NCBI GenBank assembly: GCA_964202905.1
Contig: CAXNJO010000016.1
Coordinates: 1-64,000 of the forward strand
Source of the DNA: Polyangiales bacterium
GTDB taxonomy: Bacteria; Myxococcota_A; Polyangia; Polyangiales; JADJQN01
Reading direction: 5' to 3'
DNA: 64,000 bases
Under the pieces are notes generated by a model. It worked only from the letters and a program-made list of their open reading frames with translations. It was not told the DNA's origin and searched no databases. Of the stretch, positions 28,135-59,378 are shown in pieces. Positions within the stretch are counted from its first letter, which is position 1, and every line of letters begins with the position of its first letter. The position numbers were made by a program, and so were the translations under genes.

Positions 28135-28488
28135 ATGCAGCTTCGCGGTGCCACCTCCACGGTCTCGGCGATCACGGCGGAATCGATCCGCCTCGACGTC
28201 ACGGCCGACAACGTCGCCAACGTCTCAACCGACGGCTATCGCGCCAAGCGCGTGACCAACGAAGCGACGATCAACGGCGGCATCCGCCCGCGCATCGATC
28301 AGCCGCCGCCGCCCCCGCCCTCCCCGACGACGCTCGAGGCCGATGGCCGCGAGCGCGTGTTGTCGAACGTGAACATTGGCGCGGAGGTCACCTCGCGCGT
28401 GATCGCGCAGCGCTCGTTCGAGGCCAACCTCCAGGTGTTGAAGACGAGCGACGAGATGACGCAGTCGCTCATTCGCACGAAGGCCTGA
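28135..28488 (+). CDS. Small flagellar basal-body rod/hook-domain protein (FlgC/FlgG-like termini)
   Basis: AAGGAG RBS; N-terminal ADNVANVSTDGY and C-terminal SNVNIGAEV...AQRSFEANLQVLKTSDEM. Confidence 0.85.
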   Translation: MQLRGATSTVSAITAESIRLDVTADNVANVSTDGYRAKRVTNEATINGGIRPRIDQPPPPPPSPTTLEADGRERVLSNVNIGAEVTSRVIAQRSFEANLQVLKTSDEMTQSLIRTKA

Positions 28489-55006: not shown

Positions 55007-55666
55007 TCAGGCGCCGCGGGAGGCTTTCTCGTCGAGCCCGGAGACCCCGGCGCGGCGCGCGAGTTCGCGCTCGACGTCGCTGAGCGTGACGCCGCGCGAG
55101 AGCAGCCCCACGAGCGCGTGGTAGACGAGGTCCGCGCACTCCGCGACCACCCGATCATCGGGCTCGTCGGCGATGGCGCGCGCGAGCTCGTCGGCTTCCT
55201 CGCGCACCTTCGCGCCGATCCGCGCAGCGCCCGCATCGAGCAGCGAGCGCGTGTAGCTCCGCGCGCCCGTCGCCGCGCGACGCGCCTCGAGTTCCGCGAA
55301 GAGCCGCGCGAGCTCCGTCGCCGCCGGGCCTTGCGCGGCGCCAGCGTCGGCGTCGAGCCGTCGGAAGAAGCACGAGTCGGTGCCCGTGTGACAGGTCGGG
55401 CCGAGCGGCGTCGCGAGGTAGAGCACCGCGTCAGCGTCGCAATCGACCCAGACCTCGGCGACGCGAATCACGTTCCCGCTCGACTCGCCCTTCCGCCAGA
55501 GCGCGCCCCGTGAACGCGAATAGAAATGCGCCTCGCGCGTCGCGGCGGTGCGCTCGAGCGCCTCCGCGTTCGCGTGCGCGACCATCCGCACGGCGCCGCT
55601 CGCCCGGTCTTGAACGACCACCGTCACGAGCCCGGCCGCATCCCACTTGAGCGCCGAGAGATCCAT
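55007..55666 (-). CDS. hisIE: Bifunctional PR-AMP cyclohydrolase / PR-ATP pyrophosphatase
   Basis: YSRSR..LWRKGESSG, DCDAD, CHTG..SCF, SYT..L, KVREEA.E, ECADLVYH. Confidence 0.95.
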   Translation of the reverse strand: MDLSALKWDAAGLVTVVVQDRASGAVRMVAHANAEALERTAATREAHFYSRSRGALWRKGESSGNVIRVAEVWVDCDADAVLYLATPLGPTCHTGTDSCFFRRLDADAGAAQGPAATELARLFAELEARRAATGARSYTRSLLDAGAARIGAKVREEADELARAIADEPDDRVVAECADLVYHALVGLLSRGVTLSDVERELARRAGVSGLDEKASRGA

Positions 55667-55733: not shown

Positions 55734-55946
55734 ATGAAGAACCGCCGCCACGATCTCGACGCCGTCCTCGCAGAACTCGCCGAACAGGATGCCCTCTTGC
55801 ACGGCGCGACCGCGCGCTTCGATCCCGACCCCGACGCGGGCGACGACGCCGACGTCCTCGACCGCGTCTTCGAGCTGCGCTTCGGCGCGATTCACCGCAC
55901 GGCGCGGCTCACGCGCCCCGCGCACGGCTTCCTGCTGCGCGCCTGA
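55734..55946 (+). CDS. Small 70-aa hypothetical protein, first gene of the translocon-like cassette
   Basis: Strong GGAGGAG RBS; helical acidic protein ending GFLLRA; co-oriented with the next three genes. Confidence 0.65.
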   Translation: MKNRRHDLDAVLAELAEQDALLHGATARFDPDPDAGDDADVLDRVFELRFGAIHRTARLTRPAHGFLLRA

Positions 55947-55994
55947 TCGCCCGCCGAAGCGCTCGCCACCCCCAACGACGAAGAGGTTTTCACG

Positions 55995-56645
55995 ATGACC
56001 GGCAGCTCCTCGATCGGATTCCCCTCGCGCACCTTCCCCGGACTCGGCGGCATCAGCACGACGCACGGAACGGAGGGCGATCGCGGCGACGAACTTCTCG
56101 GCGCCATCGCGGCCTCGGCGGCGCAGGGCGATTTCCGCGCCTTCATGGCGAGCCTCCCGATCTCGCTCACGCCCTCGGCGATCGTCGGGATGCTGCAGCG
56201 CCGCATGAACGGGCTCGACAGCCAGATCAGCGCGCGGATCACGGAGATGGAAGGCCAGCAGGCGCACATCAGCGAGTTGCAGGGCAAGGCCGAGATCCTC
56301 CTCGCGGTGCAGGCCGCCGTGAATACCGACGGGAACATCTTCGCGAACAAGGAGATCACGATCAACGGCGAGACGAAGAAGGCGGAACAGTGGATTGCGC
56401 AGACCGGCGTCGACGTTGCGCAGGTCATCGATGCGGACGACGGCAACTGGTACACGGGCGGCGTCCTCAGCGCCGCGACGAAGGCCATCGAGTCGGACAT
56501 CAAGCAGGCGAATCAGGGCAACGAACTGCGCATGATGGACCTGCAGAGCCTGATGCAGCAGCGCTCGTCCGAGATCTCCCTCGCGACGAACATGCTGAAG
56601 GCGGTGCAGGAAGGCACGGACGCGATCGTCCGCAACATGGGCTGA
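55995..56645 (+). CDS. Putative T3SS tip/filament protein (Bsp22-like C-terminal helix)
   Basis: Coiled coils; C-terminus ELRMMDLQSLMQQRSSEISLATNMLKAVQEGTDAIVRNMG resembles the polymerisation helix of T3SS needle/filament subunits; Ser/Thr/Gly-rich N-terminus; no Sec signal. Confidence 0.6.
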   Translation: MTGSSSIGFPSRTFPGLGGISTTHGTEGDRGDELLGAIAASAAQGDFRAFMASLPISLTPSAIVGMLQRRMNGLDSQISARITEMEGQQAHISELQGKAEILLAVQAAVNTDGNIFANKEITINGETKKAEQWIAQTGVDVAQVIDADDGNWYTGGVLSAATKAIESDIKQANQGNELRMMDLQSLMQQRSSEISLATNMLKAVQEGTDAIVRNMG

Positions 56646-56671
56646 GAACGCAGCGCTCCGAGAGGCCGCCC

Positions 56672-57847
56672 ATGACACGCATCGCCAATGGCGCCTTCGT
56701 GCGCCTGCCCGACCACGGCACACTCGCCCTCGCAGCGCGCGGTGCCGCACCCCTCGACAGCCCGCTCACCCTCGCCCTCCTCGCGGCGCCCCCGGCCGTC
56801 CCCGGGGCGGGCGCGCGTCGCGCGAGCGCGGACGCCGCACCGCGCACGTCCGGCGCTGCAGGCCCCGACGCACGCGCGCAGGTCCAGTCTCCCGCGCAGC
56901 GCGACGCGGCAGCGGCGATCGGGCTCGCCTTCGTCGGCAGCCCGGAGACCTTCCTCGCCCGCGTCGCGCTCGAATTGCGGCGGACGCGCAGCGCCGTGCA
57001 GGAGATGGGGCTCCGGGTCGAGACCAGCGCCGCGGATGGCGCGGAGAAGGCACGCGAAGCCGCCGAGGCCGCCGCGACGCGCGCCGCGCGGGAAGCCACC
57101 AGCTTCCTCGGCCTCGGCAAGACCTTCGACACCATCGCGCAGATCGCGGGTGTCGTGGCTTCCGTCGCGACCACCGCGCTGACCCTCGGCGCCGCGGCGC
57201 CGATCGCCGCTGGGGTGTTGCTCATGACCTTCGGGCCCCAACTCGTGGACTGCGCGGTCGATGCGGGCCTGTGCCCGCCCGAGTTGCGCGAAGCCGCGAG
57301 CACCGCGCTCAAGCTCACGGGCGCGGTGATGCTCGCGACGGCCACGCTCGGTGCGGGCGCGGCCGCGATCGGCGCCGTCGCGCTCGAGGCCGCCGCGAAG
57401 CACGTGGTCGATGCGGTGGCCGCAGCCTTCGATCTCAGCCCCGAGGTGTCCATGGCGCTGCAACTCACGCTCTCGGTCGGCGCGGGCGTACTCGGAGCCG
57501 TCGCCGGCGGCGCAGCGGCGTCGACGGGAGCGGCGCTCGGTGACGGTACGATCCGCGCCGCGACGACGGTGGGCCGCGACGTCGCGCGCGTCACGAGGGC
57601 CGCCGCCGAGGTCGGCTCCGCAACCACGGACGGTCTGGCCGCCGTGTCGGAGCACGACGCCGCACATGCCCGCGCCGACGCAACGGCAGCCGCCGCGACA
57701 CGCGACACCGCTCACGAGGACGCCGACAACTGGCTCGACGGCTTGCGCGCGACGCTCAAGGCCTACGGCCGCGCCATGCGCGTCGCGCGACAAACCCACG
57801 AAGCGCGCGGTGAGGCGCTGCGTGCCGCCACCCGACAACTTGCCTGA
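56672..57847 (+). CDS. Putative major translocator (SctE/YopB/BopB-like)
   Basis: Disordered N-terminus, coiled coil, long Gly/Ala hydrophobic hairpin (FLGLGK..IAQIAGVVASVATTALTLGAAAPIAAGVLLM), further hydrophobic segments, amphipathic C-terminus; no Sec signal. Confidence 0.6.
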   Translation: MTRIANGAFVRLPDHGTLALAARGAAPLDSPLTLALLAAPPAVPGAGARRASADAAPRTSGAAGPDARAQVQSPAQRDAAAAIGLAFVGSPETFLARVALELRRTRSAVQEMGLRVETSAADGAEKAREAAEAAATRAAREATSFLGLGKTFDTIAQIAGVVASVATTALTLGAAAPIAAGVLLMTFGPQLVDCAVDAGLCPPELREAASTALKLTGAVMLATATLGAGAAAIGAVALEAAAKHVVDAVAAAFDLSPEVSMALQLTLSVGAGVLGAVAGGAAASTGAALGDGTIRAATTVGRDVARVTRAAAEVGSATTDGLAAVSEHDAAHARADATAAAATRDTAHEDADNWLDGLRATLKAYGRAMRVARQTHEARGEALRAATRQLA

Positions 57848-57931
57848 GCGCTGGGCGCGCCCCACCCGCACTTGCGTCCGGCCCACCCCACATTTCCCGA
57901 AATCCGAGAATTTTTCGATGAAAAAGGCCCC

Positions 57932-58663
57932 ATGACAGCACGCATCGACGGCTCGACCCGTACGCCCACGTTCTCCACCGAGTTGCCCGTGATCACGAGC
58001 GGCGGCCCCGCGAGCGACGTCGCGCGACTGCAACTCGCGCTCCTCGACCGCCAGGAAGAATCGGCGTCCACGCAGCGGCGCGCTGGACGCGAGACCGCGC
58101 GCGCGCTCGGCCGGGCGCAGGTCGCCGAACAGCGCCGCGCGGCAGACCTCCAACTCGCCGCGGGGCTCACCCGTGCGGCCGCCTCAGCAGTCAGTGCGGG
58201 AATAGACCTCGCGAGCAGCATGAAGAGCGACCGCGCCGCGGACGCGCAGTTCCGCGCCGACAACGCGGGCGCCGATGTCGCGCGCGCGAACGATGCCCGC
58301 ACCGAGCCCGCCGGCCCCGGCGAGTCGGGGGCGTCCACCGTGTCCCTCGACCCGTCGAGGCGCGCGGCGGCGAAGCACGTGCACGAGGCGAGCCGCCTCA
58401 GGAACGAAGCGACGCGCATCGACGCCGCTGGCAAGGCGATCAGCGCCGGCGCGCAAGCCATCGCGGCGACACTCGACCACGCCGCTTCCCGCGCGGAAAT
58501 CCGCGCCACCGAGGCTGGGCAACTGGCCGAGATCGCGCGCCAGACCGCAGACGACGCCGGCGACCACGCTGCGCAGGCAGCACGCCGCAGCGACCGGCTC
58601 ATCGAGTCGCTCTCCCAAATCGCGCAGGCCCGCGCCGAGGCGATGCGCAACGCGACCGCCTAA
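57932..58663 (+). CDS. Putative minor translocator (SctB/YopD/SseD-like)
   Basis: Coiled coil, one weakly hydrophobic segment (LAAGLTRAAASAVSAGI), Ala-rich helices, C-terminal amphipathic helix LIESLSQIAQARAEAMRNA; follows the SctE-like gene. Confidence 0.5.
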   Translation: MTARIDGSTRTPTFSTELPVITSGGPASDVARLQLALLDRQEESASTQRRAGRETARALGRAQVAEQRRAADLQLAAGLTRAAASAVSAGIDLASSMKSDRAADAQFRADNAGADVARANDARTEPAGPGESGASTVSLDPSRRAAAKHVHEASRLRNEATRIDAAGKAISAGAQAIAATLDHAASRAEIRATEAGQLAEIARQTADDAGDHAAQAARRSDRLIESLSQIAQARAEAMRNATA

Positions 58664-58859: not shown

Positions 58860-59378
58860 TCACGCGGGCGTCGCGGGGATCGGCATCGAGAGACCGAAGA
58901 TCCCGAGGATCTCCTTCTCGACGCGCTCCTCCTTGACCTTGCGTGCGAGGGCGAGCTCGGTGACGAGGAGGCTGCGGGCGGTGTCGAGCAAGCGACGCTC
59001 GCCGAAGCTCAGGTCCTTGTCACCCTTGAGGCGGTAGAGGTCGCGGAGGACCTTCGCGACCTCGAACGGGCTGCCGCTCTTGAGCATGTCCATGTACTCG
59101 CGGTAACGCCGGTTCCACGGTTGCGCTTCGACGGCCACTTCGTCGCTCTTGAGGATTTGGATGACCTTGTCGGCGTCCTTCTTCGAGATGACGCTCCGCA
59201 GCCCGGCGCGCGCGGCGCCGTCCGTCGGGATCATCAAACGCATCCCGCTGTCGATCAGTTTGAGGATGTAAAACGCCTTGGGCTTGCCGGCGATCTCGCG
59301 GTTCTCGATGCCCGTGACCTCGGCGACGCCGTGCGCGGGATAGACCGCTTTGTCGCCGACCTTGAAGTGCATCTCCAT
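58860..59378 (-). CDS. cdnL: CarD/CdnL family RNA-polymerase-binding protein
   Basis: FKVGDKAVYPAHGVA, GLRSVI, WNRRYR, LSFGERRLL; no HMGA tail. Confidence 0.9.
   Translation of the reverse strand: MEMHFKVGDKAVYPAHGVAEVTGIENREIAGKPKAFYILKLIDSGMRLMIPTDGAARAGLRSVISKKDADKVIQILKSDEVAVEAQPWNRRYREYMDMLKSGSPFEVAKVLRDLYRLKGDKDLSFGERRLLDTARSLLVTELALARKVKEERVEKEILGIFGLSMPIPATPA

Follow-up and report, generated by a model that had tools for sequence, protein, structure and literature searches.

Among the described type III secretion systems (T3SS), those closest to the locus considered here are acrG-acrV-acrH-aopB-aopD of Aeromonas, lcrG-lcrV-sycD-yopB-yopD of Yersinia and the plasmid T3SS of Nitratidesulfovibrio vulgaris. 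The locus in question is a cassette of four genes within a 64,000-nucleotide stretch of DNA (positions 1 to 64,000 of contig CAXNJO010000016.1, assembly GCA_964202905.1, from a bacterium of the order Polyangiales; this whole stretch is called the window below). It has in common with these systems the same five-slot order, homology in the translocators SctE and SctB and, in its relatives, a SycD gene. In Aeromonas and N. vulgaris, however, everything lies in one cluster that includes sctC, sctD and sctW, whereas here the system is scattered and sctC, sctD and sctW were not found; the Ysc-type operon differs further in that its AcrV is not matched by the profile of our gene 2, and in that SycD is shortened or lost here. 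The cassette is, as set out below, an ancient translocon and filament set belonging to a scattered, apparently secretin-less variant of the non-flagellar T3SS (NF-T3SS), for which we infer a filament, a pore, a target and a route through the outer membrane.

Other systems are comparable in particular respects (published work is cited here for those parts of each source that were available). EspA of EPEC and Bsp22 of Bordetella have a long N-terminal helix, a variable middle of mixed alpha/beta structure and a long C-terminal helix in common with the gene 2 product, and the layout of the Bsp22 model is, as in gene 2, a helix pair with a variable middle (PMC12607632); Bsp22 is also duplicated in some genomes, as gene 2 is, in tandem, in some relatives of the source genome. 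Gene 2 nevertheless has no significant sequence or fold score to EspA, and is compared with Bsp22 by description. Within the same phylum, the T3SS* and T3SS(2) of Myxococcus xanthus (the 'Myxo' NF-T3SS) similarly comprise a non-flagellar export core without a secretin of its own, and Myxo T3SS has FliO (PMC12403147). They are, however, clustered and without SctF, tip or translocon, T3SS* being described as a cluster with neither needle nor translocon (PMC10433427, PMC12075869), whereas the present system, set apart from them by these descriptions, is dispersed over the genome and includes genes resembling those for needle, filament and translocon. The genes of the chlamydial NF-T3SS also lie at several separate loci, as would fit vertical inheritance (PMC3459982), but these number at least four and include a secretin, whereas here almost all the genes are single and surrounded by housekeeping genes.

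As for earlier surveys, Abby and Rocha found Myxo systems only in Cystobacterineae and without secretin, SctF, tip or translocon, with the proviso that tip and translocon may be missed (PMC3459982). The presence of sctV and sctR has been noted in Polyangia, and the bradymonad system called needle-less (PMC11509652); the available text of PMC10196010, PMC11821767 and PMC12403147 adds no needle or translocon, and that of the CluSeek preprint (bioRxiv 10.1101/2025.09.16.676505) makes no mention of myxobacteria. Literature searches found no description of the scattered system, supplements and subscription papers being outside their scope; some of its genes may be among those in Table S4 of PMC11509652.

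The cassette and its translocators

The cassette had been described in an earlier note as four co-oriented genes of 70, 216, 391 and 243 aa, and the open reading frames, their shared orientation, their lengths and the end of gene 2 are all as given there:

55734-55946, plus strand: gene 1, 70 aa, likely chaperone or regulator of gene 2, from its LcrG/CesA-like position
55995-56645, plus strand: gene 2, 216 aa, predicted tip-filament subunit of EspA/Bsp22 type
56672-57847, plus strand: gene 3, 391 aa, major translocator SctE (YopB/AopB/SseC type), by profile homology
57932-58663, plus strand: gene 4, 243 aa, minor translocator SctB (YopD/AopD type), by profile homology

Family alignments were built from related loci, and the resulting profiles were run against the 4366 proteins called in the source genome (5.68 Mb in 19 contigs, 94% complete; G000 among our labels, in which G numbers denote genomes, C numbers its contigs and L numbers loci) together with 13 reference proteins. 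Judged by these profiles, genes 3 and 4 are relatives of the injectisome translocators SctE and SctB. For gene 3 (22 rows) the single sequence already matches PF04888 (SseC) in Pfam at E 7.7e-4, the same family being matched by 9/22 family members (best 1.7e-12), and the family hidden Markov model (HMM) finds Aeromonas AopB at E 1.7e-23 and the protein in the SctE slot of Nitratidesulfovibrio at 3.1e-18, the best protein from any other locus of the source genome standing at E 0.25; hhalign aligns it with AopB over 254 columns with a probability of 96%. Hydrophobic windows (Kyte-Doolittle, 19 residues, >=1.5) occur at about 154-196, 215-242 and 259-283 in gene 3, and there is none in gene 4. 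The HMM for gene 4 (20 rows) finds AopD at E 2.7e-11 and Nitratidesulfovibrio SctB at 4e-9, with the best other-locus protein of the source genome at 0.11; its hhalign match to AopD (probability 62%, E 7.8e-5) is less firm than that of gene 3, and its Pfam matches are weak (YopD and SctB2, one of 20 members each). Taken as single sequences, genes 1 and 4 gave no Pfam match, and an NCBIfam scan of the four single proteins gave no relevant one. The translocon module proposed in the earlier note thus stands at profile level for genes 3 and 4, and a type III export set is likewise present in the genome. In one related genome (G310, L078:8466-9346) the SctE gene is split into two pieces.

Between the gene 2 stop (56645) and the gene 3 start (56672) lie 26 bp, too few for a chaperone gene. 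In 28 distinct related loci, counted by hand after three duplicates had been dropped, a full tetratricopeptide-repeat (TPR) protein of 130-157 aa is encoded between genes 2 and 3 in 11 and a shortened one of 65-99 aa in nine; the slot is empty in six and was unreadable in two. In an alignment of 20 TPR proteins, 17 of them from this slot and three from Bradymonadia-type loci, 14 match the LcrH/SycD model TIGR02552, with a best value of 4.1e-17. Because a SycD-family gene sits in exactly this slot in relatives, the ancestral cassette can be read from these sequences as small gene - filament - SycD - SctE - SctB; the note had remarked that SycD/LcrH was missing, and none was identified in the source genome. 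Candidates for a dispersed SycD came down to long generic TPR proteins and a 178-aa TPR protein among acyl-CoA genes (C8:73454-73990), not assignable to the family.

The filament candidate and gene 1

Gene 2 is predicted to encode a tip-filament subunit of EspA/Bsp22 type with a needle-type C-terminal helix. The single sequence matches the needle family PF09392 at E 0.0085 over residues 159-215, and 48 of 148 aligned family members do so at E<=0.01 (best 4.8e-7); the family is large (598 clusters at E<=1e-3), its aligned members ranging from 157 to 299 aa. Conservation peaks at residues 61-80 and 161-216; the N-terminal region and residues 141-160 are the least conserved, and the C-terminal 40 residues are near-invariant in close homologues. 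In the AF2 model (pLDDT 88) helices at 60-107 and 155-215 form a long antiparallel pair with a small beta-rich insert, so that model and alignment together suggest the layout of an EspA-type filament, in which conserved terminal helices enclose a variable alpha/beta domain. In addition, the gene 2 profile picks out, above all background (E 9e-4; 30% by hhalign), an unannotated 169-aa gene that precedes SycD in the T3SS cluster of N. vulgaris. Tandem copies of gene 2 were seen in two genomes (G323, L079:3046-4308, and G226), and a second, distant copy in another (G300, L153:6511-7176).

Structural comparison is less decisive. Foldseek ranked EspA filament chains first (7khw) and fourth, at E 0.013 and 0.093, with prefoldin and Vipp1 among the rows and nothing at E<=1e-3, while the best 50 of a wide structural search were generic coiled coils that included neither EspA nor needle chains; the fold match is for these reasons no more than suggestive. 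The EspA family was not among the matches listed (25 of 50 families) in a Pfam scan of the gene 2 family, and PDB sequence searches with the gene 2 and needle alignments gave nothing significant. The earlier identification of gene 2 as a tip protein therefore survives in part: the EspA/Bsp22 filament design and the needle-type C-terminal helix are retained, an LcrV/IpaD cap is not, and the first-ranked fold score is not significant.

Gene 1 is likely, from its position, a chaperone or regulator of gene 2. Its model has helices at 3-28 and 38-56 followed by a disordered tail, and a gene of 54-93 aa precedes gene 2 in relatives. The more specific proposal of an LcrG-like regulator found no support in sequence: hhalign against AcrG gave a probability of 0.3% and six homologues did not match the LcrG model PF07216 (both tests having weak power for short divergent proteins), and Foldseek gave no match. 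A C-terminal motif of hydrophobic residue, Arg and small residue is seen in the gene 1 family, where 16/19 members end in R[AGVC]; the same ending is found in 8/22 of the gene 3 family and 16/20 of the gene 4 family (families A4, A6 and A7), in 3.9% of the proteome and in 0/20 of the SycD family.

Genomic context of the cassette

The cassette is flanked by genes at 55007-55666 and 58860-59378, both on the minus strand, which we take to be hisIE and cdnL/carD respectively. On these assumed labels the cassette lies between cdnL-like and hisIE-like genes in many relatives, gene order and flanks recurring across the order with the SycD slot variably filled, and the copy in the source genome is inverted in place; relatives among eight loci found by a pattern search belong to Polyangiales, Sandaracinus and Sandaracinaceae metagenome-assembled genomes. 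The third-position GC content (GC3) of genes 1-4 is 0.86-0.92, within the range of the genome (median 0.93; 5-95%: 0.84-0.97), so that the four genes look native. Genes 2-4 have no strongly hydrophobic N-terminal segment by a crude hydropathy test (no signal-peptide predictor being used), in keeping with the lack of a Sec signal described previously, and the gene list of the cassette contig contains no sct gene, as had also been stated. Promoter, terminator and sigma-54 scans found none, and a single-protein scan of the genome contigs gave no matches.

The export genes and the likely needle gene

The earlier note had supposed that the export apparatus is encoded elsewhere, and a second, non-flagellar set of export genes is indeed present in the source genome, with a needle-like gene at a separate locus:

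C6:7356-9443: sctV, best match to the Sct model
C3:443347-444420: sctU, best match to the Sct model
C3:175184-176289: sctS-T; sctT best matches the Sct model, SctS passes the FliQ and SctS cut-offs
C5:176351-177106: sctR, best match to the Sct model, with a divergent fliO beside it
C3:527848-528975: sctQ, best match to the Sct model
C1:469626-470927: sctN, best match to the Sct model
C9:60381-61172: sctJ, best match to the Sct model
C2:407425-408045: sctL, best match to the Sct model
C14:12838-13269: SctF-like gene, 143 aa, likely needle, unlinked to the cassette
C14:12372-13269 (L157:5372-6269), minus strand: the needle gene with its 132-aa partner, co-occurring with the cassette across the order

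These sct genes stand as single genes or pairs among housekeeping genes, separate from the flagellar cluster, and those for SctR, S, T, U and V are second copies at four loci, distinct from the flagellar ones; the whole sctRSTUVN set is thus present in scattered form. Cut-offs are passed by SctV (767>692), SctR (212>209) and SctS (93>77), while N (588/605), J (151/162), Q (96/101) and L (74/79) score slightly below theirs with the Sct model still the best. The scattering is general, no other sct gene being found near sctV in 20/20 loci of the order (fetched stretches of up to 16 kb), and in 10/20 sctV lies, as in the source genome, beside dnaX/ybaB/recR. Genes of no assigned family are tightly linked to sctT (C3:174660-175187, downstream of it, 175 aa, lipoprotein-like), sctQ (C3:526971-527666, upstream of it, possible SctP) and sctL (C2:408042-408593, upstream of it, possible SctK), none with a Pfam or NCBIfam match of note; together with the 132-aa gene next to the needle gene, these are candidates for the parts that were not found. 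The flagellar cluster itself is complete (C3:747023-788344), with a second flagellin, 87% identical, at C11:157348-158187.

Homology and co-occurrence give moderate support for the gene at C14:12838-13269 as the likely needle, SctF. Its family (105-146 aa, with a needle-type C-terminal helix) was reached through weak second matches of the gene 2 profile, with which it shares that helix (hhalign 96%); its HMM ranks N. vulgaris SctF next after the family's own protein, at E 7.3e-5 and above background, and its Pfam signal is faint (2/7 members at E about 0.07). The 132-aa gene that follows it, of unknown family, has apparent counterparts in five other loci.

Co-occurrence and ancestry

The distribution was examined in 151 genomes of the order, in which kin are not independent and one genome (G383) is counted in part of the denominators. 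Gene 2 occurs in 55/151, one of these being a weak match at a contig edge, and the needle gene in 52/151; although the loci are unlinked, 50 genomes have both, five gene 2 alone, two the needle alone and 94 neither. Genomes with and without both loci are mixed inside families f2, f3, f7 and f78, gene 2 is kept across at least 17 family codes, and in genus g4 SctV, SctJ, gene 2 and needle are all absent in 18/18. SctJ reaches at least 90 bits in 48 of the 55 gene 2 genomes, two more having partial rows and the other five being 54-91% complete. In 34 chosen genomes the SctE profile matched 6/7 gene 2 carriers (the seventh has the gene in place), 2/17 non-carriers of the order (one a true match at a contig edge, one marginal) and 0/10 genomes from outside it. 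A second, FlhA-like match was noted in many genomes of the order. The view of the cassette as standing alone must accordingly be given up: it is carried by 55/151 genomes with its export set and needle-like gene elsewhere in the source genome, and, far from being an oddity, has long been passed down vertically within one order.

A single-gene tree of 51 SctV/FlhA sequences (IQ-TREE quick, SH-aLRT support; one partial long-branch row, Chlamydia and M. xanthus left out) places the scattered SctV on the non-flagellar side (support 100), inside a clade (97) made up of members of the order, arranged for the most part by family, which lies outside seven canonical references (99). The deeper order of the non-flagellar groups is unresolved in this tree, and FastTree gave a similar result. 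SctV branches are longer in cassette-less lineages (0.74, 1.05, 1.49; in a sister pair 0.37 vs 0.21), and those examined that have SctJ without gene 2 show a shorter, faster-evolving SctV (614-639 aa) in a needle-less form. Outside the order, SctJ-like genes are found in family f16 (25/26) and a few others; an SctV from f16 has the same sequence as a Bradymonas sediminis protein that bears the name SctV. Genomes of f16 type have a gene-2-like gene, often with a TPR gene, and a needle-like gene, and no SctE was detectable with our profile in these Bradymonadia-type genomes. At loci of other classes including Bradymonadia (L066-L070, L072-L074, L156) a gene-2-like gene, often followed by a SycD-like TPR gene, lies beside uvrD-/dapA-like genes, with no translocator adjoining it.

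Mechanism and rival explanations

Given the parts, homologies and co-retention documented above, it is likely that the cassette is exported by the scattered non-flagellar type III apparatus, building a filament with a membrane pore at its end. In such a scheme, export by SctV, U, R (with FliO), S-T, N, J, Q and L would supply the SctF-like 143-aa protein as probable needle; gene 2 would polymerise on this needle through its conserved terminal helices with its variable middle exposed, much as in EspA or Bsp22; and the products of genes 3 and 4 would travel through the filament and insert in a target membrane. The target would most likely be a microbial eukaryote (such as a grazing protist or a fungus), by analogy with known SctE/SctB systems; no effector was identified. 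The step put forward with least assurance is passage of the needle through the outer membrane by a borrowed secretin, proposed because no dedicated one was found; most plausibly this would be the type II secretin GspD, which is favoured since two cassette carriers (G053, G311) have a single secretin whose frame length, 836-938 aa, suggests GspD and is unlike the 400-aa Tad type. The fuller proposal, that this is a working contact-dependent injectisome with needle, EspA-like filament and two-protein pore but without its own secretin, which passes the outer membrane by a borrowed or other channel and represents a deep, vertically inherited and scattered Myxococcota NF-T3SS lineage outside the canonical clade, is offered tentatively, at somewhat less than even credence.

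Several results weigh against these proposals, beginning with the structural and Pfam searches on gene 2 already given. No dedicated SctC was found in the 94% complete genome, which encodes PilQ, GspD and a third secretin that belongs to a Tad-like cluster, and as regards its secretin the system does not qualify as a canonical injectisome; by a hand tally, moreover, the median number of secretins is three both in 21 cassette-positive and in 15 negative genomes. For SctD there were partial N-terminal matches of at most 31 bits and nothing more; SctW was not found, with a control that was also silent; SctI, SctO and SctP were not confirmed; single-sequence queries gave no SctD, SctW or SctI; and the best TIGR02552 score for SycD was 42.6 bits against a cut-off of 104.8, in long TPR proteins. 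Lastly, SctJ occurs without gene 2 in 41/151 genomes (e.g. G332, G326, G065), and the export core must therefore have a job independent of the cassette. One candidate for the rod was considered and dropped: a lone 117-aa protein in the window (28135-28488, plus strand), far from the flagellar cluster, amounts to scarcely more than the two terminal helices (N and C) found in flagellar rod/hook proteins, and such a domain (PF06429) is absent from 36/36 genomes selected for having at most one sctV/flhA match, while it was detected in 4/14 controls.

Those same 36 genomes bear on the idea that it is the flagellar export apparatus that secretes the cassette products. The source genome does have a complete flagellar cluster, but 15 of the 36 carry the cassette and keep a sctV-like gene, and because carriers without rod/hook genes exist the idea is largely refuted; we regard it as the least probable of those considered here. 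It is also very improbable that the system is the decaying relic of a once complete injectisome: stepwise SycD loss, patchy distribution, the split SctE of G310 and shortened SctV in cassette-less lineages could all be so read, but the open reading frames of the source genome are intact, the end of gene 2 is near-invariant in close homologues, and the unlinked loci are tightly co-retained across many families.

The remaining alternatives concern where the machine acts. Since known SctE/SctB pairs insert in eukaryotic membranes, and since the single secretin of G053 and G311 is by its length not of Tad type, we think it unlikely that the machine is instead an antibacterial contact weapon used on prey through a Tad/Kil secretin, despite two points in favour: the third secretin of the source genome, in the Tad-like cluster, has SctC as its best NCBIfam match, weakly (80 bits against a cut-off of 238), and there is a parallel in the Kil-T3SS* of M. 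xanthus, where prey lysis depends on T3SS*, itself co-localised with Kil (PMC12075869, PMC10433427). A system that never crosses the outer membrane, forming a periplasmic or surface-shed structure or loading outer-membrane vesicles, would fit the lack of any dedicated secretin, SctD or SctW found, and a periplasmic role has been suggested for Myxo systems by Abby and Rocha (PMC3459982). Against this, a translocon of two proteins would have no obvious use inside the periplasm, while the variable middle of gene 2 and its tandem copies fit an exposed filament, as does the multiplication of bsp22 (bioRxiv 10.1101/2025.09.16.676505); the chance of such a confined system seems to us slim.

Significance

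On the standard account, so far as the available text of PMC3459982 gives it, myxobacterial T3SS have no needle, tip, translocon or secretin and cannot inject. About a third of the Polyangiales genomes sampled have genes resembling those for needle, filament and translocon, along with an export core so dispersed that detectors looking for clusters would overlook it, which raises the question of how a needle might cross the outer membrane without SctC. If the system is indeed a secretin-less deep lineage, needle, tip and translocon would predate the capture of the secretin, and the needle-less systems of myxobacteria would be products of reduction, through a loss repeated within the order. The order of events in injectisome evolution, that is, whether the pore came before the secretin, thereby becomes testable; a related reduced form exists in Bradymonadia, a group with cultured members. 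For the organisms themselves, the cassette points to a contact weapon not so far recognised in predators that are common in the environment.

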